Shown: positions 1-39,783 of the stretch, one piece after another | Layout of the letters: the number at the start of each line of letters is the position of its first letter | Numbering within the stretch: position 1 is the first letter of the stretch | IMG/VR virus record: IMGVR_UViG_2706794673_000014 | Reading direction: 5' to 3' (one strand) | Length of the DNA stretch: 39,783 nt | Source of the DNA: a virus | Lineage: Duplodnaviria; Heunggongvirae; Uroviricota; Caudoviricetes | Notes under the pieces: generated by a model | What the model was told of the DNA's origin: nothing | Database searches by the model: none | The model's input: the letters and a program-made list of their open reading frames with translations, nothing else | Program-made: the position numbers and the translations under genes

Positions 1-459
1 TTATTCAGTCGGCAGTGCTACGCGCCAGGGGAGCAGTTCGCCGACCCGGTTTATCGGCCAGTCGGCTATGACGTCAAGGACATAGCGGAGGTAGCTTTCT
101 GGCTCCACTCCGTTCAGTTTGCACGTCCCGATCAGGCTGTACAGCAGCGCTCCCCGCTCTCCTCCATGATCCGAACCGAAGAACAGGTAGTTTTTGCGGC
201 CCAGACTGACCATCCGCAACGCATTTTCAGCGATGTTATTGTCCGCCTCAGCCCAGCCATCATCTGCATAGTACGTCAGCGCCGGCCACTGGTTCAGGGC
301 ATATGCGAACGCTTTCGCCAGTTCTGAGTGTCGCGACAGGGTTTTCATCTTTTCACGCAGCCAGCTTTCCAGGGATTTCAGCAGCGGTTTCGTTTTCAAC
401 TGACGTTCGGCAAGGCGCTGTTTCAGCAGGAAGATGTCGTCAGAAGAGATGTCGTTCAT
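1..459 (-). pseudogene. tnpC: IS66-family transposase (TnpC/Orf3) C-terminal fragment, roughly the last 150 aa; 5' two-thirds absent
   Basis: Translation ends ...NIAENALR...GRKNYLFFGSDHGGERGALLYSLIGTCKLNGVEPESYLRYVLDVIADWP, as recalled for IS66 TnpC C-termini; stop at 1-3; in-frame stop upstream at 520-522. Confidence 0.8.
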
Positions 460-545
460 AAGCCCGTATTTTACCGGGCTTATTCTGTGACAACCAGGAT
501 AAAGAGATTTACAGCATGGTCAGGGAGGTCAGCAGCCGCTTAGGC

Positions 546-640
546 TGTCTATAGCGCGGCGATTTTTTTGATACCGATTTGCATTTCATTTGATACCGCT
601 GAAAAACGCCGATACGCAACTTATTTGATACTAAATCGGC
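546..640. repeat. Right-end (attR-like) terminal repeat region: three closely spaced TTTGATAC(C/T) motifs at 567-575, 589-597, 624-632
   Basis: Motif read directly; inverted copies at the other end (39253-39261, 39158-39166, 39106-39114); tight spacing matches Mu attR R1-R3. Confidence 0.7.
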
Positions 641-677: not shown

Positions 678-1415
678 TCATTCACTCTCTTTCAAACCAG
701 TTTTAACTGTTTGTGGTTTTGGGTAAGGCTGGACTTTGAATAGCTTTGTGTTAAGGCGTTTTCTGGCTCTCTTGTCCAGAAACCGGATGTAACGAAACTG
801 ACGGAATTTATGAACACTGGCTCTGTCGATATTAGCCCGCAGATGTTCACCTCGCTGTCCTCCTCGTTTGATTGCATTCTTGCAAATCTCGTGATACCAC
901 TCGCCATCAAGTTCATAGAATGTTGTTTCATGACTGCCTACATAATCAAAATTGCTTGCCTGGTACACGACACCAAGACAGCCACAACGCTCATCTGCAA
1001 ACGACTGAACCCACTGCACCTGCGGATAAAGTTGTCTGATTAGTTTGAGCGCGTAACTGATTGCCCTTGATTCGGAGTTTCTCGGCATACAGTCATGCAG
1101 CCATAACCGGTTAAGCTCCATATATTCGCGGTTCTGCGTGCCAGTTACGACGCGTGCACCATTGTTTGGATTAAGGGCATAACCCCATTGCATTACGCCA
1201 ACCAGCTCCCGTTCTGAAAATATGCCCAGATGAAGGTAGGAATTATTTACGAAACGATGGCTGTAATGTTTATTGACGACGACCAGCCGGGCCAGCCAGC
1301 AACTTATTGTCTCAACCCGTAACTCACGGGAGCCATAACCGACGATATTGTCGTTATAGTGAATAAGTTCAGGCGTGCTGATGATACGGGATGTAACTTG
1401 CTTTCTGTTCCCCAC
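678..1415 (-). CDS. mom: Mom-like DNA modification protein; start uncertain (GTG at 1415 with AAGGA 9 nt upstream proposed; the ORF track extends to 1610)
   Basis: Terminal gene next to attR-like end, overlapped by com 3' end, GATC cluster upstream, ~245 aa; identity inferred from context, not sequence recall. Confidence 0.55.
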
Positions 1416-1569
1416 GACAGGATTTCCTTGTGTATGTGGGGTGCTCTGTGGCGCTCTGAGATGTGATTTGATTGAGGGTTTTACAGCGCGGACATTTAAC
1501 TTCCAGATAACTGAAGCTGGCTCGTGCCAGTAGCTTGTTACAATGTCGGCACCGTATGTTTCGATACAT
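1369..1569 (-). CDS. com: Com zinc-finger translational activator of mom
   Basis: [14 protein letters not shown]...EVKCPRCK...EHPT matches recalled Mu Com (IRCKNCNKLL...EIRCPRCK...EHPT); ATG at 1567-1569 preceded by AGGAGG; stop overlaps proposed mom start region. Confidence 0.8.
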
Positions 1570-1616
1570 GGCCGCATAACCTCCTGCTTTGTTGTTGATA
1601 TCTTTATCACTCAATC

Positions 1617-1702
1617 GATCGACAAAAACGATCGATTTGATTTATTTAATTGATACAACAAATAACACGAAATGTCATTAGCGAAAATTTATGAGTTTGA
1701 TC
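1617..1702. promoter_or_regulatory. GATC cluster (1617-1620, 1630-1633, 1699-1702) and 8-bp inverted repeat ATCGATCG/CGATCGAT upstream of com-mom
   Basis: Read directly; Mu mom promoter is known to be controlled through Dam methylation of three upstream GATC sites (OxyR binding). Confidence 0.45.
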
Positions 1703-2286: not shown

Positions 2287-2541
2287 TTACATCATGGTAC
2301 TGTCAGTTCCGGGCTGAGCCGGGTCTGGTTGCTCTGGCTGCGCGTCGGTTTTCGGCTCATTATCAGCATCACTGGCCGCAACTGCTGGCCCAATAAGTTT
2401 TGCCAGCACTTCATCAACGTAAGTGTCGATTTGTGCCTCAAAATCCTTGCGGACCTGCGCTTTCAGCAACTTATTTACTTCACCGGAATACAGTGCCTGT
2501 TTTACCAGGTCTTCAGTGACGGTGCCTTTAATTTCTGGCAT
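2287..2541 (-). CDS. Hypothetical acidic protein, 84 aa
   Basis: ATG at 2539-2541 with AAGGAGG 6 nt upstream; Asp/Glu/Pro-rich C-terminus. Confidence 0.6.
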   Translation of the reverse strand: MPEIKGTVTEDLVKQALYSGEVNKLLKAQVRKDFEAQIDTYVDEVLAKLIGPAVAASDADNEPKTDAQPEQPDPAQPGTDSTMM

Positions 2542-2576
2542 GTATATCCTCCTTATGCGGGAATAAAGCCCTGCAA

Positions 2577-2759
2577 TCAGGGCTGGGTCGGGTCTTTTGG
2601 GAGCGGAGTTACCTGCGCTGTTTTACTGAGTTTTTCAGCTGCTGCGTCCTCAATTTTGCGGCGAACATAATTTCTGATGGCCTTATAACCACCACTCACC
2701 AGATATAACGCACATACTGCCGTGCAGAAATACAATAAAATAAGCTGTAAAAATGTCAT
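2577..2759 (-). CDS. Small membrane protein, 60 aa, one predicted transmembrane helix
   Basis: ATG at 2757-2759 with GGGAGG upstream; hydrophobic N-terminus FLQLILLYFCTAVCALYLV followed by a basic stretch. Confidence 0.6.
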   Translation of the reverse strand: MTFLQLILLYFCTAVCALYLVSGGYKAIRNYVRRKIEDAAAEKLSKTAQVTPLPKDPTQP

Positions 2760-2855
2760 TATCCCTCCCAATTATTGACATGGTGTTGACACCGGTAATA
2801 TCTGTTAGGTAAAAAGGTGCACTGCATTTTTTGCTTTGGATATAACGATCTTTTT

Positions 2856-2897
2856 GCCGCCGGTTTCTTGTTTTCCCTTACCGGCGGCATTTTTTTA
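2856..2897 (+). terminator. GC-rich hairpin (GCCGCCGGT ... ACCGGCGGC) followed by T-run ATTTTTTTA; intrinsic-terminator-like on the plus strand
   Basis: 9-bp perfect stem, 15-nt loop, T-run 2889-2897; on the minus strand the hairpin is followed by A, so it is plus-strand specific. Confidence 0.45.
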
Positions 2898-2903
2898 TCC
2901 TGC

Positions 2904-4958
2904 TTACGCGTTATTCACTTCCACCACGATACTGTCAATCAGTACCGGGTAAGTCGCATTTTTAGTGATATCGGTCACGCGCAACTTGTCTGCCGTAAAC
3001 GTGCCGACCGGAGACTGCGACAGCATGAATGGTGTCCCGTCCTTACCATCAATGACCGGCGTCACCTCAATACTGTTGTTACCGGCAAAACGGAAGCCCA
3101 GCGTATGCCATTCGTTATTAAATGCGCCGAATGACCCCAGCTTCGTGTTCTGCGCCGTGTTTCCTTTGTGATACATCACGTTAAGGTCTGTGGCATCGCT
3201 CTGTACGTAGAACGATGCCAGCAGGTTATGACCGGCATTTCCTTCCAGAGTAACCCCTTGCGGCAGGGCAGAAACCGGCCAGTACAGCGCCAGTGCGTAC
3301 TGATTAGCCGTAAGCGCGCCATCGAGTTTAAAACGACAACTGACAAGACCACCTTTACCCAGCAGGTCCGCACCATTACCAGCATCATGCTCAAGGTACC
3401 AGGGGGCTCTTCCTGTTTCCTTGGTCAGTTTCATTGCCTTACCCCCGCTGGCTCCGGCATCATCCACGATTTGAGCCTTGCCACCTCCGGCAGCCCAACC
3501 CTGTGGTGTCAACCGTCCTTCAGACTCAGATGCCCGGTAAGCAAATAGCGTACTCATCGTCGTGGTGTCTGCGGGTGGCGTGGACGGTTTTGATGGTGTA
3601 TCAGGTGACGGCTTCTCATCCGGTGGTGTCACGGTCTGCCCACGCATCAGTTCAGCCGTGCGCCCTGCATGGAGCATAATAGCTGAGGCCAGACGGTCTG
3701 AAATGACGCCCCTGCGTGCCCATGAGCTGAAATGGCTGTCACGCTGTGTCGAAACAAAACTGCCCTGGGTTCGGGATGCTGCACCGTAATACCCGACAGC
3801 CACAATATCCGGGTCTTCCGCCGGAGCATTCGTTGGCGTGCTCTGTCCATTCTCATCCGTCAGGAACGGTACAAAGAAAATTTTCTGTGCTTCCTTGCCT
3901 TTGTAGCCACCGTATACTGCCTCATATTTATCGGTGCCAGCGTTTTTCCAGTAATACGTGGTATCACCGCAAATCCACGGCACCGTGGTGGCATTTCCAC
4001 TCACGCACTGCGCAGCAAGCGGAGCCAGGTCAGTTCTGAACTGCTGAACCATGGCCGTGAATAAACTATTATGCTGCTGGCTTCCTGAGGCAAGGTCTGC
4101 CTCTCCCTGCATCCAGACCACAGCCAGAAGTTTGTTTTTCGGGTTTTTCGCCAGCGCGACTTTGGTGCGGCTTACCAGGTCCTGATACAGAGGTTTACCG
4201 GCCCCCCAGCGTGAAGAATCAGCGGAAGCACCGCTGGCCTCACTGAATGAGCCGTCGGCTCCAGTGGTGAATGCTGACCCGCCACGACAACAGGGCACCA
4301 GAAGTATCCCGGCATTCTGTGGGATATAGGGAAGCAGTTTTTTGGCAATATGCAACCCCTGACCGACAGTCCCGTACTGGCCTTTTGCCAGATCAGCTTT
4401 CGGGTGGTTTATCCCGCTCATATCCTGAACATCATGCAGGCAGTGGTCTGCCGGAATGATGTCGTTGTATGTACACGACGTACCGTTGGGCGTTACCGTA
4501 CTGCGGCGTGCCAGTTGCTTAATGCGTGGGTCCGGGCGGTCAAACGAATCCGGTAACGGCAGCCCCTCGCCGTAGGCCATGCCATTTGACTGACCCGCGA
4601 GAATGACAACAAAGTAATATTCCGGCTCTGAACTGCTGCCATTCGTGCTACCGGAAGGCCCGGCGTTATCCGGTGCATTCCAGTCGGAGGGCGTGAGCGT
4701 TCCGGCCACGTCAGATGTGATTGGAATGATGCCAGTCACGCCTGAACTGGTGATTTCTGCACTGGGATTACCGGATACCGGCATTACCCATAATGGCTCT
4801 TTCGTGCTGAAGCGGATCACGCAGTCTGCGAAGGTGATCCCCCCTTTATTACCCGAAGGGCGGAAAGGGCTTTCAATAAATGCCACCGTGCCACCGGCAA
4901 CCTTGACTGAAAACTCTCCGGGCATGGCGGAGAGCATTTTCCACTTGGAGTCTGACAT
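2904..4958 (-). CDS. SGNH-hydrolase sialate O-acetylesterase-like protein (NanS/NanS-p-like), 684 aa, with Pro/Thr linker and C-terminal putative carbohydrate-binding domain
   Basis: Motif YYFVVILAGQSNGMAYGEGLPLPD and downstream blocks (NDIIPADHCLHDVQDMSG, LLVPCCRGGSAFT, HFSSWARRG) match recalled E. coli NanS (YjhS); linker TPPDEKPSPDTPSKPSTPP. Confidence 0.75.
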   Translation of the reverse strand: MSDSKWKMLSAMPGEFSVKVAGGTVAFIESPFRPSGNKGGITFADCVIRFSTKEPLWVMPVSGNPSAEITSSGVTGIIPITSDVAGTLTPSDWNAPDNAGPSGSTNGSSSEPEYYFVVILAGQSNGMAYGEGLPLPDSFDRPDPRIKQLARRSTVTPNGTSCTYNDIIPADHCLHDVQDMSGINHPKADLAKGQYGTVGQGLHIAKKLLPYIPQNAGILLVPCCRGGSAFTTGADGSFSEASGASADSSRWGAGKPLYQDLVSRTKVALAKNPKNKLLAVVWMQGEADLASGSQQHNSLFTAMVQQFRTDLAPLAAQCVSGNATTVPWICGDTTYYWKNAGTDKYEAVYGGYKGKEAQKIFFVPFLTDENGQSTPTNAPAEDPDIVAVGYYGAASRTQGSFVSTQRDSHFSSWARRGVISDRLASAIMLHAGRTAELMRGQTVTPPDEKPSPDTPSKPSTPPADTTTMSTLFAYRASESEGRLTPQGWAAGGGKAQIVDDAGASGGKAMKLTKETGRAPWYLEHDAGNGADLLGKGGLVSCRFKLDGALTANQYALALYWPVSALPQGVTLEGNAGHNLLASFYVQSDATDLNVMYHKGNTAQNTKLGSFGAFNNEWHTLGFRFAGNNSIEVTPVIDGKDGTPFMLSQSPVGTFTADKLRVTDITKNATYPVLIDSIVVEVNNA

Positions 4959-5030: not shown

Positions 5031-5063
5031 ATTCAAAAAAGCGTCACGGTACTTTTGGTGACG
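5031..5063 (-). terminator. Putative intrinsic terminator just after gin (6-bp GC-rich stem, then TTTTTT on the minus strand)
   Basis: Stem CGTCAC/GTGACG at 5042-5047 and 5058-5063 overlapping gin stop; plus-strand A-run 5035-5040. Confidence 0.45.
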
Positions 5064-5616
5064 GAGCTGGTGAGGCAGGAAAATAACGATAAAGGGTGGA
5101 AAGGCCAATATCAAATATCAGTGCGATTTGTTTACGGGACTCGCCATTAGCCAGCAAACGGGCGATTTGCTCCCGCTCTTTCTCTGTCAGTTTCTGAGGT
5201 CTGCCGCCATGACGCCCCTGAGCACGGGCAGCAGCAAGACCCGCGCGTGTACGTTCAATAATGAGTTCCCGCTCCATTTCCGCCAGCGCGCCCATTATAT
5301 GGAAAAAGAAACGTCCCATGGGAGTGGATGTATCAATATTGTCCGTAATGCTGCGGAAGTTAACGCCGCGTTGCCGGAGTTCTTCTGTTAAAAGGACAAG
5401 GTGCTGCATACTGCGTCCAAGGCGATCCAGTTTCCAGACCAGCAGGGTATCCCCTGGCCGGAGTCGCTTTAATGCGCGTTTAAGTCCGGGACGCTCCCTT
5501 GTCTTACCGCTTATTCTGTCTTCGAAAAACAGCTCACATCCTGCACATTCCAGCGCATTTCTTTGTAGCGCCGTATTCTGGTCATTTGTTGACACCCTGA
5601 TATACCCAATCAGCAT
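5044..5616 (-). CDS. gin: Gin/Hin/Pin-family serine DNA invertase
   Basis: MLIGYIRVSTNDQ...LLVWKLDRLGRSMQHL...GRFFFHIMGALAEMERELIIERT closely matches recalled Mu Gin; sits beside the invertible segment. Confidence 0.93.
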   Translation of the reverse strand: MLIGYIRVSTNDQNTALQRNALECAGCELFFEDRISGKTRERPGLKRALKRLRPGDTLLVWKLDRLGRSMQHLVLLTEELRQRGVNFRSITDNIDTSTPMGRFFFHIMGALAEMERELIIERTRAGLAAARAQGRHGGRPQKLTEKEREQIARLLANGESRKQIALIFDIGLSTLYRYFPASPAPSPKVP

Positions 5617-29195: not shown

Positions 29196-29699
29196 TCATG
29201 GTGTTCTCTGAGTCAGCGTAACCGTGAGGAAAAGGGGGCAGGATTTGCGGAATATCANNNNNNNNNNNNNNNNNNNNNNNNNNNNNNNNNNNNNNNNNNN
29301 NNNNNNNNNNNNNNNNNNNNNNNNNNNNNNNNNNNNNNNNNNNNNNNNNNNNNNNNNNNNNNNNNNNNNNNNNNNNNNNNNNNNNNNNNNNNNNNNNNNN
29401 NNNNNNNNNNNNNNNNNNNNNNNNNNNNNNNNNNNNNNNNNNNNNNNNNNNNNNNNNNNNNNNNNNNNNNNNNNNNNNNNNNNNNNNNNNNNNNNNNNNN
29501 NNNNNNNNNNNNNNNNNNNNNCCGCCTGAGCAGGTTCAATCCCCTGACGGTGCAGTTCAGCACTGATCACATCAACCAGGTCCCGCAGCGTGCCGGGCCA
29601 GTTCTTTTTCAGCTCATCATCAGGAATATCATCCAGACGGTCAATCAGCGCGTGCAGCTGTTCGCTGTCACCAAACATGCTCATCTGTGTTTCAGCCAT
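29196..29699 (-). CDS. Mor/C-family transcription activator; only the N-terminal ~59 aa (29521-29699) are readable, the rest lies in N-run 29258-29520
   Basis: N-terminus MAETQMSMFGDSEQLHALIDRLDDIPDDELKKNWPGTLRDLVDVISAELHRQGIEPAQA resembles recalled Mu Mor; position between gemA and lys. Confidence 0.6.
   Translation of the reverse strand: MAETQMSMFGDSEQLHALIDRLDDIPDDELKKNWPGTLRDLVDVISAELHRQGIEPAQAXXXXXXXXXXXXXXXXXXXXXXXXXXXXXXXXXXXXXXXXXXXXXXXXXXXXXXXXXXXXXXXXXXXXXXXXXXXXXXXXXXXXXXXXXIFRKSCPLFLTVTLTQRTP
29258..29520. other. Run of N (unsequenced or masked)
   Basis: Read directly. Confidence 1.
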
Positions 29700-34969: not shown

Positions 34970-35907
34970 ACCTGTGAGAGTAATTCAGGGTTGGTATAAA
35001 CCTCTTTAAAGGCCGCATTAATATGTTTTTCTGTCAGCGCCGCGCCTTCACCGCTGGCGGTGAGCCACGCCTGGTTAAGCGTATGTGTCAGAACGCGTAA
35101 CGCTCCCGGCTTTTCAGCGATAGCCTGCATGACGGCCAGCTCGGCCTCACCACTGATCCCCCACGCCATGGCAATGGCCAGCACATCCGCCTTTTTGGCC
35201 TTGCGAAGTTGTTTTGTACGGGCAAGACGGCTGAACAGGCGCGATAAATCATCAAAGGCGCGGCGTCCACCTTTAAACAATCCGCGCGGGTTACCAATAA
35301 GCACCATCCCGATCCCCGTGGCGTCCTGAATTGCCCGGAGTTGCTCCAGACCGTCAATACCAAGATGATCCGCCTCATCCACAATCACCAGTCCACGCGT
35401 TCCCATCAGGCGACGGCGGATGGCGCGGGATAATGCCCCTTTGTTCGCGCGGGTGTAATCAATCCCCAGCGCATCGGCCAGCTCCAGCAGACACTCCGTG
35501 ACGCTGGAGTGCGCGGGTGACAGGGTGATCATCCAGGTGTTTGGTTGCTCCTGGCAGTAATTACGGGCAGTGGCCGTTTTACCCACACCCGGTACGCCCA
35601 CAATAACGTTAATACAGCCCATCAGGCGAACCGCCTGAAACAGTGCGCGCAGCTCCTGGACTGTCTGAGTTTCCACAAACTGCGGCGGTTCCGGCAGTGC
35701 GCTTTGTTTATTCCAGTTCTCATACCAGGAGCGCAGGGAAGCAGCCACAGCAGCGTTATCGCCTTTATATTTTCCCTTACGGAAAGCCGATAATGTGCCG
35801 TCGGAAATTCCCGCCTCTCTGGCGATGGCATACTGCGTCAGTACGCCGCCATCAATAAGTTCATCAATGGTCTTGATTACATCGTTAATATCGGTCATAT
35901 TATTCAC
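34966..35907 (-). CDS. B: MuB-like AAA+ transposition target-capture ATPase
   Basis: Walker A VGVPGVGKT, LVIVDEADHLG Walker B, ...KPGALRVL...; closely matches recalled Mu B. Confidence 0.92.
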   Translation of the reverse strand: MNNMTDINDVIKTIDELIDGGVLTQYAIAREAGISDGTLSAFRKGKYKGDNAAVAASLRSWYENWNKQSALPEPPQFVETQTVQELRALFQAVRLMGCINVIVGVPGVGKTATARNYCQEQPNTWMITLSPAHSSVTECLLELADALGIDYTRANKGALSRAIRRRLMGTRGLVIVDEADHLGIDGLEQLRAIQDATGIGMVLIGNPRGLFKGGRRAFDDLSRLFSRLARTKQLRKAKKADVLAIAMAWGISGEAELAVMQAIAEKPGALRVLTHTLNQAWLTASGEGAALTEKHINAAFKEVYTNPELLSQV

Positions 35908-35980
35908 CTCGCTTGAGACAGCATTCTCCGAGACTGAAACCTCAAATAACCTGAGTCACCCCTCGGGTTATTTTTTTATT

Positions 35981-38068
35981 TCAGGCCAGCGGATCACTTT
36001 CTTTTAATTTCGCTTCGAGCAGTTGCAATCCCCGCTGGAAATTACGCTCGTATTCTTCATCAGGTTCATCGTCAGCGACCGGTTGCTGAACGGTCACCGT
36101 ATTACCCACAGGGCGGTATATGTTTTCCAGCCAGGGCTCCTGCGGCTTGTGCTCCAGCACGTTGACAACCTCATCCTCGGCATCACGGATTTTTTCCTCT
36201 GCGCGTTTACGCATGCCTTTAAGGCGCTGCTGCTGTTTGTAGTATTCCGCGCTGACAGGGAAGGCTTCGCGTTTATTGCCGTCCCATACCGCCTCGCAAA
36301 TCACGCTGCCATCCGGGCGGCGCACGGTAATTCGTTCGGCATCATGAATGTCATAGCTGATAAGTACCTTACGGCCATGCTCGTCACGCAGCTCGGGCGC
36401 GTAGTAAATATTATTCAGCCAGCGTATTTCACAGCGTCTTACAGGGCGCTCCACCATCGGCCGGAACATATCCCGCAGTTCAACATCGGACAGCCATTCA
36501 ATTTCCGTGTCCTCTTCCGCCAGGCGTTTTTTTCTGAACTCCGCCGGGCTGTAATGTTTACCGTTCGGCTTCATGGGTAATTCATCGTGCGGCCGGTTGT
36601 TGTACCACTCAACACCGTCACGAATGGCATCAATCAGTTCAGACCAGGACGGTAAATCACGCATCGCTGACTGCTGCCGGGCGTTCAGCCGTTTGCCCTG
36701 TTGCAGGGCACTGAATGCCGAGCGTAAATCGCGGTTGGTTTTACGTAACGTCTCGCGATCTGCTCCTTTCCCGAAATAGGTGCGGTATTTACGGGCTATG
36801 CGCATCGGTAATGTGCGGTTAAGCCGTTCGATAATGCCCCGTCCCTGCGGATTACCGGCAATCCCTGTCGGGTGATTAATCCCCAGTCGTGGCAGTATCC
36901 CCACAATCTCCTTATCCAGGACGTCGGCGGTTTCCCCGGAGCCATTATCCGAGTAATACAGAAACGGTTTGCCATGATGGCGAATACCGTGCTGTATGGC
37001 ACCGGCTACGGCGAAAACATTTTCAGCCAGGTCAAGGCTCCAGCCCACCACAAAGCGCGTGCCACCGTCGATAACAAAGGTCACTTCCGGTGCGAATGGC
37101 CGCCCGTGAACCGGGTGCGCGCATTTCAGCTTCATGCCGTGACCGTCACCAATCCAGACATAATTCACCGGCATTCTGGACCAGTCGCGGCGCGTGAATC
37201 CCTCAAGCTGACGGTATTCACTGCCAGTTACCCGGCCTTTTTGTTTCACCACTTCCGGCAGTTTCTTCATTGCGCGGCGAATGGTGTCATAAGAGGGCAT
37301 GATATCGAGCATATAAGGCTCATCAGCGTGCCGGTGCTGCCATTCAGCAACAAAATCCTCGTAAGCCTCGGTCATTGGTCGGCCGTTTGACTGGCGATAC
37401 TGCGCCAGAAATTCGGGCAGCCAGTTAATATCTTCGGCTTTTATTTCCTGGCGTTTACCCGGTGCCAGTAAAAGCAGGCGTTCAGCGGCGTTCTGTGCCT
37501 TGTTAAAGGCCGCAATCCAGCGTTTCAGCGTGATTTCACTCAACGCGCGGCTGTTTCCCTTTTTGGCGTTCGCCGTCTCAACCATTGCCACAATGCGCTC
37601 GTCCAGTTGTGATCGTGCCAGGCTGTTAACGAGGAACCGGATAGCTTTAGCGCAGCTGAAACCGGGTTGTTGCGTGAATTTCAGCACCTCACTGACGATC
37701 GCAATGCGTGCGTCTGCCACCTGGCGCTGGTTTTCAGTCAGGGCATTGAGGCGTTCGACCATCAGTTGTGGTGATCCGCGATATGCCTCCACCGCATCAA
37801 CCACGGCAGACGAGCGTCTGGCCTTTGTCACCACCGGAGCCGGTGATTCATCGGCTTTTTGCGTCATCAGTTGCAGGGCATAACGTTCGCGTAATGCCTG
37901 CTGTGTCACTTCAGGTAAACAGTCAATGCTGTATTCAAAACCTTTAGCGCCTTTCTTGCGGCGTCTGCTGGTTTCGCTGGTTGCATACTTCCTGATTGAA
38001 TAGCGAACGCCTTGCTCCGTTCCCGGCATCCCCGGTAATCCAACCAGTTCTTTAACTGAAGCAAACAT
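35981..38068 (-). CDS. A: MuA-like DDE transposase
   Basis: 695-aa ORF between ner and B; N-terminal end-binding-like region; length and order as Mu A. Confidence 0.93.
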   Translation of the reverse strand: MFASVKELVGLPGMPGTEQGVRYSIRKYATSETSRRRKKGAKGFEYSIDCLPEVTQQALRERYALQLMTQKADESPAPVVTKARRSSAVVDAVEAYRGSPQLMVERLNALTENQRQVADARIAIVSEVLKFTQQPGFSCAKAIRFLVNSLARSQLDERIVAMVETANAKKGNSRALSEITLKRWIAAFNKAQNAAERLLLLAPGKRQEIKAEDINWLPEFLAQYRQSNGRPMTEAYEDFVAEWQHRHADEPYMLDIMPSYDTIRRAMKKLPEVVKQKGRVTGSEYRQLEGFTRRDWSRMPVNYVWIGDGHGMKLKCAHPVHGRPFAPEVTFVIDGGTRFVVGWSLDLAENVFAVAGAIQHGIRHHGKPFLYYSDNGSGETADVLDKEIVGILPRLGINHPTGIAGNPQGRGIIERLNRTLPMRIARKYRTYFGKGADRETLRKTNRDLRSAFSALQQGKRLNARQQSAMRDLPSWSELIDAIRDGVEWYNNRPHDELPMKPNGKHYSPAEFRKKRLAEEDTEIEWLSDVELRDMFRPMVERPVRRCEIRWLNNIYYAPELRDEHGRKVLISYDIHDAERITVRRPDGSVICEAVWDGNKREAFPVSAEYYKQQQRLKGMRKRAEEKIRDAEDEVVNVLEHKPQEPWLENIYRPVGNTVTVQQPVADDEPDEEYERNFQRGLQLLEAKLKESDPLA

Positions 38069-39032: not shown

Positions 39033-39105
39033 TAGCATTAGCCCGCATTTTGCACTATATCGAGTATTTCGCATTGTTTGGAACGCCTTAAAAGACTAAA
39101 ACCAC

Positions 39106-39286
39106 AGTATCAAATGAGTTGCCGATTTTATAATAAATGACTAATTATTGCACAATCGGTATCAAATAGACCTTATCCGCACATCTAGCCATCACCTGTT
39201 TTATTTCAGTATCTTACAGGTGATTTCACCTCCTTTCACTAAACCCCTTGTCGGTATCAAATGATTCACCTGGTTATATGTCGCCA
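39106..39286. repeat. Left-end (attL-like) terminal repeat region: one GGTATCAAA motif at the terminus (39253-39261), two more 95 and 147 bp inward (39158-39166, 39106-39114)
   Basis: Inverted copies of the right-end motif; spacing (one terminal site, gap, two internal) matches Mu attL L1-L3. Confidence 0.7.
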
Positions 39287-39589
39287 GTCGATACCTTCCA
39301 GCAGCATCGCCAGCTGCGCCTGTGTAAGGAACACTTTGCCATCACGGGCTGACGGCCAGGCGAAGCGCCCACGCTCCAGCCGTTTGGTCAGGAGGCACAG
39401 TCCGTCACTGGTGGACCACAGCAGTTTAACCTGACTGCCGCTGCGGCCCCGGAAAATGAAAACATGGCCGGACATGGGATCGTCTTTCAGCGCCGTCTGT
39501 ACTTTCGCAGCCAGGCCGTTGAAGCCATTTCTCATATCGGTGATACCGGCAACCAGCCAAATTTTGATCCCGGAAGGTAACGGGATCAT
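39266..39589 (-). CDS. tnpB: IS66-family TnpB (Orf2); C-terminus may be altered by the prophage junction
   Basis: MIPLPSGIKIWLVAGITDMRNGFNGLAAKVQ...LWSTSDGLCLLTKRLERGRFAWP typical IS66 Orf2; ATGA overlap with upstream orf at 39586-39589. Confidence 0.9.
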   Translation of the reverse strand: MIPLPSGIKIWLVAGITDMRNGFNGLAAKVQTALKDDPMSGHVFIFRGRSGSQVKLLWSTSDGLCLLTKRLERGRFAWPSARDGKVFLTQAQLAMLLEGIDWRHITR

Positions 39590-39783
39590 CGCTTCAGTTC
39601 CTGTATCAGCAGAGTCAGGAGCTTTTCGCTGACATTGCCATTGAAGCGGAGCGTCCCGTGCCGGAACGTTACCTCACAGCTGATACTGAGGGTTTTCGGG
39701 TCCTCTGCGAGCGATTCTGGCTGTTCGGCAGCTGCATCGAGAGTCACAGGAAGTAGCTGGGGGCTCTCTGAAGAAGGTAATAG
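39586..39783 (-). CDS. tnpA: IS66-family TnpA (Orf1), 3' portion; 5' end beyond window
   Basis: Open minus-strand frame to window edge ending in TGA overlapping the tnpB ATG (classic IS66 orf1/orf2 arrangement). Confidence 0.7.
   Translation of the reverse strand, partial: LLPSSESPQLLPVTLDAAAEQPESLAEDPKTLSISCEVTFRHGTLRFNGNVSEKLLTLLIQELKR

Follow-up and report, generated by a model that had tools for sequence, protein, structure and literature searches.

A Mu-type com-mom module with the mom start codon inside com in a Mu-like Escherichia coli prophage

The product of the Mom enzyme of phage Mu rearranges to N6-carbamoylmethyl-adenine, and phage DNA then resists many restriction enzymes. In a 2026 study, Mu Mom was found to transfer glycine from Gly-tRNA(Gly) to N6 of adenine in double-stranded DNA (PMC13219725). 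Activity was abolished or greatly reduced in mutants of R111, S124, D149 and R151, with R111, S124 and R151 being essential, and was strongly diminished in mutants of W48, H58, Y59, Y159 and W181, whilst mutation of Y28 had no significant effect; a Mom-specific HTH-like insertion (Mu residues ~175-209) was required for activity, and Mu Mom without the 10 residues upstream of the GUG codon was active (PMC13219725). This GUG is the mom start according to the literature and lies within the stem of a translation inhibition structure (TIS), the recognition motif of Com being CC(N)2-3GAG in a hairpin loop (PMC6483171). In RefSeq, Mu mom starts at an ATG (241 aa), and the GUG of the literature is codon 11 of that annotated ORF. 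The Mu-like prophage Sp18 of O157:H7 encodes Mom and its regulators at the corresponding position, and modules combining com with a DNA methyltransferase gene have been described in phage B3 (ORF47/48), FluMu (HI1522.1/HI1523) and Pnm1 (PMC3299994). The Mu reference used for comparison was as follows.

NC_000929: Mu com at 35768-35956; Mu mom GUG start 10 codons inside the annotated CDS at 35877-36602

Prophage setting and the com and mom gene products

The window, that is the whole 39,783-nucleotide stretch of DNA analysed, contains a Mu-like prophage gene set comprising GemA, Gp27, lysozyme, a gin-like invertase and A- and B-sized ORFs. The com-mom operon lies at the right-hand end of a Mu-like transposable E. 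coli prophage, with the same gene order and right-end position as in Mu. The genes and the adjoining prophage end were assigned as follows.

678-1415, minus strand: mom, 245 aa, start GTG 1415-1413, stop 680-678; tRNA(Gly)-dependent adenine N6 aminoacyl/carbamoylmethyl transferase by homology
1369-1569, minus strand: com, 66 aa, start ATG 1569-1567, stop 1371-1369; zinc-ribbon translational activator by homology
1580-1585, minus strand: com Shine-Dalgarno AGGAGG, 10 nt 5' of the com ATG, read from the sequence
559-631, no strand: repeated TTTGATAC(C) motifs at the prophage end beside mom, found by repeat search

Mirror-image motifs (GGTATCAAAT) were present at 39104-39262, at the other prophage end, and the TTTGATAC/GGTATCAAAT end repeats are probably transposase-binding. 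The mom stop codon lies ~130 nt from the prophage end, the Mu distance being 115 nt. Homology to a copy of the prophage inserted elsewhere (sgrR) begins at window position 544, and ISEc8 sequence extends to 549, overlapping the start of this homology. The right junction is near 39266-39282, with an imperfect candidate target duplication (CTGTC/ATGTC), and the prophage is flanked by ISEc8 (IS66-family) fragments. Unlike in Mu, gin is not adjacent to com in the window; cargo genes intervene, the interval between the invertase and com holding a divergent ORF without assigned function, DUF826, DUF1378 and a NanS-p-like esterase. No NCBIfam model matched the ORF at 1826-2119.

An earlier sequence-only reading had taken the identity of Mom from context, had allowed that its product might be a diverged DNA-modification enzyme, and had proposed alignment with Mu Mom as a check, with lack of similarity to Mom-family proteins counting against it. 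The 678-1415 product matched the Pfam Mom family (PF25680) over its full length (profile positions 1-202 of 202) with an E-value of 1.6e-77 and a score of 260.2 bits (cut-off 27.1). It shares 78% identity with Mu Mom across 229 aa and matched the Mom crystal structure, PDB 8bv8 ('Methylcarbamoylase mom'), with an E-value of 2.4e-123; at the DNA level the window region and Mu mom/com share 72% nucleotide identity. All nine of the Mu residues at which mutation impairs activity are identical in the window protein, where W48, H58, Y59, R111, S124, D149, R151, Y159 and W181 align with W40, H50, Y51, R103, S116, D141, R143, Y151 and W173, respectively. Mu Y28 is likewise identical, and the HTH-like insertion aligned free of gaps and with high identity. 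Since the Pfam match, the identity to Mu Mom, the match to 8bv8 and the conserved residues all bear on the protein itself, the identification as Mom is independent of context, and with 78% identity and every activity residue kept the caution about a diverged enzyme was unneeded. By sequence comparison the window mom gene encodes an intact Mom enzyme, with two extra residues near the N-terminus and 12 beyond the C-terminus of Mu Mom. No NCBIfam model matched the window Mom.

The same reading had recognised com by its zinc-finger motif, and this was borne out by a match of the com product to Pfam PF10122 (Zn_ribbon_Com, 'Mu-like prophage protein Com'; E 7.5e-13, 48.2 bits, cut-off 22.9) and by two CxxC pairs, C7-x2-C10 and C26-x2-C29 (CxxC...CPRC). 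All four cysteines are conserved in every one of 10 aligned Com proteins, and the window Com is 45% identical to that of Mu. A PDB sequence search with Com gave no match.

Both coding sequences are present in RefSeq as the same CDSs as in the window (com, WP_014334043.1; mom, WP_000528246.1); the module is already known and is annotated there with the same boundaries. E. coli Mu-like prophages such as Sp18 carry modules identical or at least 90% identical to that of the window. Copies of the O157:H7 type are ~94.5% identical and the insertion site varies among genomes, with otherwise no substantive difference. At an identity of at least 90% the module was found in 226 of 5,426 complete E. coli genomes. 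E. coli annotations name the mom product variously as 'protein mom', 'Mom family adenine methylcarbamoylation protein' and 'tRNA(Gly)-dependent adenine aminoacyltransferase Mom', and annotated copies have a Com family protein overlapping mom.

Start codon of mom and predicted RNA structure at the com/mom overlap

The features bearing on translation of mom are these.

1369-1415, minus strand: overlap of the com 3' end and the mom 5' end, 47 nt, the mom frame lying one nucleotide downstream of the com frame
1425-1429, minus strand: mom Shine-Dalgarno AAGGA, 9 nt 5' of GTG 1415, read from the sequence
1410-1441, minus strand: predicted TIS, for which the RNAfold MFE and centroid structures agree
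1441-1454, minus strand: probable Com target hairpin GCGC[CACAGA]GCAC, abutting the TIS, placed by positional homology to the Mu target

From 1610 down to 678 the mom frame stays open, and the in-frame ATG, GTG or TTG codons upstream of the Mom domain are limited to GTG 1610, ATG 1577 and GTG 1415. The conserved domain begins near 1325, and the next in-frame ATG, at 1193, falls inside it. GTG 1415 is homologous to the GUG at which Mu mom starts, the two aligning exactly (VGNRKQ... versus VGKEKK...), and in a 99.9% identical E. coli chromosome PGAP calls a Mom CDS of 738 nt and a Com CDS of 201 nt that overlap by 47 nt. The sequence-only reading had placed the mom start at GTG 1415, with AAGGA 9 nt upstream and 47 nt inside com, and had remarked that no ATG of the mom frame lies near the com stop. 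Each of these points was confirmed: the codon aligns with the Mu GUG and coincides with the PGAP start, the overlap runs from 1415 to 1369 as in PGAP, and the nearest ATGs are at 1577 and, within the Mom domain, 1193. The corresponding overlap in Mu is 50 nt (GTG at 811 of locus L001, com stop ending at 762).

In the predicted TIS the outer stem is formed by CCCCAC (1441-1436) pairing with GUGGGG (1415-1410), which includes the start codon, and an inner stem covering the Shine-Dalgarno is formed by the pairs A1431-U1417, C1430-G1418, A1429-U1419, G1427-C1420 and G1426-C1421. The fold of the 53 nt from 1452 to 1400 by RNAfold has an energy of -13.3 kcal/mol and is only modestly better than that of shuffled sequence (z = -1.9; 11 of 200 shuffles equally good). 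In Mu, as in the window, a hairpin with the C-N3-GA type of loop is immediately followed by a CCCAC...GUGGG stem that has the Shine-Dalgarno within it, the differences being a TIS loop of 20 nt with an extra inner stem over the Shine-Dalgarno in the window as against 11 nt in Mu, and a single C·A mismatch in the window hairpin stem that is not present in Mu.

The window hairpin has the C-N3-GA loop, CACAGA, within CCACAGAG at the place homologous to the Mu target, AUGC[CUGCGA]GCAU, and this loop agrees with the CC(N)2-3GAG motif. Of its four stem pairs, the second is the C·A mismatch and the others are standard; RNAfold forms just two of the pairs. The stem is weak and commonplace by chance, one-mismatch hairpins of this kind being expected about 7 times per kb, so that the window hairpin alone is not significant, and 1441-1454 is the probable Com target on positional homology rather than on statistics.

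Related com junctions were gathered from viral and genome collections, and 15 of this type were compared. The layout of a C-N3-GA hairpin, CCCAC or CCCCAC, a Shine-Dalgarno loop of 11-20 nt and GUGGG(G) was present in all 15, including three (L084, L085 and L086) with a methyltransferase gene instead of mom. The TIS outer stem gives no information from covariation, as its arms are invariant across the 15 junctions, and the codons that overlap there (EHPT in Com, VG in Mom) could account for part of this conservation. The stems of the Com hairpin do covary across the family (AUGC/GCAU, GCAC/GUGC, GCGU/ACGC, AGGC/GCCU, UUGC/GCAA and others). At least one perfect Com-type hairpin was found near the com 3' end on the mRNA-sense strand in 58 of 70 distinct com loci, and the density of such hairpins was 7.4 per kb at com 3' ends against 0.78 elsewhere in the same loci, a 9.5-fold difference. 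In the window clade the second stem pair is nonstandard (C·A in the window, A·A in L085 and L086), and no perfect Com hairpin was found among the loci of this clade. An Rfam scan of 500-2300 at E <= 1 returned a chance IS102 match alone (21 bits, gathering score 46), and no curated Rfam family for a Com target or TIS matched in this interval. It had been proposed at the outset that the locus has the Mu arrangement, in which Com is needed to expose the mom start, and that RNA structure prediction around that start would be informative; the prediction pairs both start codon and Shine-Dalgarno directly 3' of a hairpin with a Com loop, in the Mu layout and with arms conserved in 15 of 15 junctions.

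Three other interpretations of this region were considered. The open mom frame could in principle yield a long, Com-independent Mom isoform of 299 aa starting at ATG 1577, which sits 8 nt upstream of the com ATG and just downstream of the strong AGGAGG. However, only 2 nt separate AGGAGG from this ATG, which is too close, whereas the com ATG lies at 10 nt. In L016, a relative with 96-97% identity, a stop closes the frame 27 codons before the GTG, and in Mu and the other relatives stops occur 1-46 codons upstream, L030 alone being open, over 68 codons. The stop-free stretch across com is unremarkable because 15% of codon-shuffled versions of com are also stop-free in the mom frame over the 51 codons between the com start and the GTG. 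The extension would moreover be an out-of-frame translation of com that does not resemble Mom, and in the long ORF the Pfam domain begins at residue 96. The start at ATG 1577 was rejected on the unconserved open frame and the spacing of its Shine-Dalgarno, and such an isoform is considered extremely improbable. That Com might be a DNA-binding transcription factor rather than an RNA-binding translational activator is suggested by the RefSeq product name, 'Com family DNA-binding transcriptional regulator', and by a loose description of promoter regulation by Com (PMC3299994). The RefSeq name is, however, an automated annotation, Mu Com binds mom mRNA at the hairpin beside the TIS (PMC6483171), and target-type hairpins with covarying stems on the mRNA-sense strand of 58 of 70 com loci are the signature of an RNA rather than of a DNA operator, so that this role for Com is scarcely credible.

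A further possibility is that the genes are intact and control by Com has decayed in the window clade, leaving mom permanently silent or leaky in a cryptic prophage. The nonstandard second pair of the hairpin and the lack of a perfect hairpin throughout the clade would fit such decay, as would the position of the prophage amid IS66 fragments. Against this, a C·A opposition can form a wobble-like pair, and the whole clade, at Com identities of 62-100%, has kept the TIS, the placement of the hairpin against it, the loop motif and the closing pairs. The com and mom genes and all important Mom residues are also intact, and the module is retained at 90% identity or more in the 226 complete genomes mentioned above. 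Decay of Com control is thus regarded as very unlikely, and the window module as an ordinary Mu-type com-mom for which the first reading was correct.

Promoter region and candidate late activator

Two further features are relevant to transcription of the operon.

1613-1637, no strand: palindrome AATCGATCG-N7-CGATCGATT with two Dam sites, aligning with Mu AAATCGATCG..GATCGATT
29196-29699, minus strand: gene for a 167-aa Mor/C-family protein, a candidate late activator, immediately upstream of the endolysin gene, at the place of C in Mu

The Dam sites of the palindrome are GATC at 1617 and 1630, 13 nt apart, with a third GATC at 1699, and in the alignment the window GATC block is homologous to the block upstream of Mu Pmom, which also has a GATC pair 13 nt apart. 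OxyR reportedly binds the Mu GATC block when Dam methylation is absent, as described in work by Hattman and Kahmann. By analogy we infer that the 1613-1637 palindrome may be an OxyR/Dam control element. Of 20 com loci compared, 18 have a GATC cluster upstream of com. The spacing falls into two main classes, with 76-80 nt between the com ATG and the proximal GATC in the Mu class and 51-54 nt in the window class. Eight of these 20 loci, the window included, have a GATC pair with 13-nt spacing whose proximal member is at -51 to -54 relative to the com ATG. The window block has two sites and lies 27 nt closer to the com ATG than that of Mu, which has three; because of this closer position a Mu-type C site would not fit between the block and a -10 element, and promoter control may therefore differ in the window class.

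A sigma-70 promoter scan of the minus strand upstream of com found none, and when a C site and promoter were sought by eye in this region neither could be placed. The absence of a sigma-70-like promoter fits an activator-dependent promoter such as Mu Pmom. The N-terminal 50 aa of the 29196-29699 product show 38% identity to Mu C (E 2e-10) and 31% to Mor, the resemblance to Mu C being confined to these residues; the product matched Pfam Mor at an E-value of only 0.2, and no NCBIfam model matched it. The flanking genes encode GemA and lysozyme. This candidate activator may act at the com-mom promoter.

Proposed mechanism and coupling of com to other modification genes

The differences between the window module and Mu described above are small, and the Mu mechanism very probably holds for the window com-mom. 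The protein identities, the overlap, the homologous start codon and the conserved RNA layout are evident in the sequences, and from Mu homology and the RNA fold prediction we infer Com binding, opening of the stem and transcriptional control of the Mu kind. One transcript would carry com and mom, with late transcription probably gated by Dam methylation of GATC 1617/1630 (OxyR-type in Mu) and probably also requiring a late activator, for which the Mor/C-like gene at 29196-29699 is the candidate. Com would be translated from its own strong ribosome-binding site, whilst the mom ribosome-binding site, AAGGA, and the GUG would be sequestered in the stem-loop 1441-1410. Binding of Com to the adjacent hairpin at 1454-1441 would then open the stem-loop and allow translation of mom late in the lytic cycle, and Mom would modify adenines of the phage DNA, protecting it from restriction.

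The earlier reading had also allowed for a different gene family at this position in relatives. This is the case in some of them, where com precedes DNA methyltransferase genes, although the window gene itself is still mom. Modules of Com with a methyltransferase share with the window the Com zinc ribbon, overlap of the controlled gene with the com 3' end and a Com-type mRNA hairpin; they differ in controlling a C5, N6/N4 or D12 (Dam-like) methyltransferase, whereas the window module controls a genuine Mom. In L084, L085 and E. coli SW070917 the TIS and GUGGGG are as in the window, and homology ends ~13 nt past the start codon. Judged from sequence, the presence of com before methyltransferases in relatives shows that the regulatory cassette is modular.

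Several observations on the wider occurrence of com were made alongside. In E. coli SW070917 a com 93.5% identical to that of the window is joined to a cytosine methyltransferase gene. Among 80 com loci in species-representative genomes, mom was downstream in just seven, the other 73 being without Mom. When 10 downstream ORFs from non-mom loci were compared with Pfam, all but one were D12, N6/N4 or C5 DNA methyltransferases or had no match, and most of the remaining downstream ORFs begin like D12 enzymes. Genes downstream of com usually overlap its 3' end, and most of these loci have a Com-type hairpin with covarying stems, often in two copies 22-23 nt apart. Many Mom homologues of 68-70% identity occur without com and have an ATG start.

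The balance tips slightly towards com, its hairpin, the stem-loop and the first codons of the target gene together forming a portable translational-control cassette that recombines onto varied DNA-modification genes, with the promoter layout of the window clade perhaps unlike that of Mu, its Dam sites lying inside the core promoter. This principle has been published for B3, FluMu and Pnm1; if such a cassette exists, novelty would lie only in its breadth, the breakpoint and the conserved RNA motif. The window module is a clean positive control in that a non-ATG start buried in an upstream gene was callable from sequence alone. The occurrence of Com-type hairpins before varied DNA-modification genes is of modest help in annotating start codons and in predicting translational control of phage modification genes. 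By its sequence the prophage has its anti-restriction function intact, and the phage, or DNA that it mobilises, could thereby be helped across restriction barriers among E. coli strains.

The 3′ end of com and the genes that follow it

A perfect 4-bp hairpin with a C-N2-4-GA loop was present at the com 3′ end in 58 of 70 distinct loci, a 9.5-fold enrichment. The hairpin stems covary across com loci and paired hairpins were frequent at com 3′ ends, with a spacing of 22–23 nt. Rfam contained no family for this Com-type hairpin RNA element. Among 80 Com loci from genome contigs (L084–L163), Mom was absent downstream in 73, and downstream genes usually overlapped the com 3′ end, by 16–100 nt. When ten downstream ORFs were checked against Pfam, eight were D12 (Dam-like), N6/N4 or C5 DNA methyltransferases, one matched ABC_tran only and one was without a family.

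In E. coli SW070917 (L165, 1584–1769, compared with window 1402–1660), a com 93.5% identical to that of the window leads directly into a gene for a C5 cytosine methyltransferase, and homology to the window stops approximately 13 nt 3′ of the GTG start codon. The position of this break suggests recombination just past the start codon, with com, the hairpin, the predicted translation inhibition structure enclosing the mom start and the start codon itself possibly travelling as a single cassette. The comparison also took in Citrobacter braakii (L084), where a methyltransferase gene stands in place of mom.

The com upstream region and a Mor/C-like protein

Features and their window positions
1613–1637 and 1699: GATC cluster upstream of com
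29196–29699, minus: 167-aa Mor/C-like protein, located where Mu has C

Comparison of the com upstream regions of the window, L016, L028–L033, L084–L091 and L114 indicated two main classes of spacing between the proximal GATC and the com ATG, 76–80 nt or 51–54 nt, with the window belonging to the short (51–54 nt) class. In the short class the GATC pair would overlap the core promoter, with no space for a Mu-type C site. Likeness of the 167-aa protein to the Mu activators C and Mor is restricted to its N-terminal 50 residues, and its C-terminal part, the would-be DNA-binding part, produced no family match.

Cargo genes and prophage flanks

Features and their window positions
1–549: left flank, with the 3′ end of tnpB (~41 nt), the spacer between tnpB and tnpC, and a tnpC ORF
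1826–2119, plus: 97-aa ORF, divergent from com
2287–2541, minus: DUF826
2577–2771, minus: DUF1378
2904–4958, minus: 684-aa SASA and DUF6645 protein, a NanS-p-like sialate O-acetylesterase
5044–5616: gin-like invertase
39266–39783: right flank, tnpA/tnpB of ISEc8, with tnpB truncated at 39266

The gin-like invertase is separated from com by a block (2287–4958) encoding DUF826, DUF1378 and the NanS-p-like esterase, a trio whose typical home is lambdoid/Stx prophages and which is therefore odd cargo for a Mu-like prophage. A matching block adjoins com and the cytosine methyltransferase gene in E. coli SW070917 (L165, 563–3460), where the block sits beside a lambdoid tail gene (L). The 97-aa ORF had no match in Pfam or NCBIfam; RefSeq calls it hypothetical in a near-identical genome and marks the copy in E. 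coli SW070917 as frameshifted.

Pieces of ISEc8 (IS66 family) lie on both sides of the prophage. The tnpC ORF of the left flank is only 152 aa long, and its match to the transposase domain is confined to the domain's C-terminal part. The prophage flanks showed no clean 5-bp target duplication.

Mom proteins with and without com

Mu Mom ends in …PYPK, whereas the window Mom continues further.

Feature and its window position
678–716, minus: extra C-terminal part of Mom, 12 residues past the Mu Mom end

This extension is common to the whole window clade of 245-aa proteins (cluster P0001, 1,318 member sequences). Mom homologues 68–70% identical to that of the window were located mid-contig in phage contigs of 40–80 kb (L049–L082, viral contigs). 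Since these homologues have no com upstream and start with ATG, Com control is limited to part of the Mom family.
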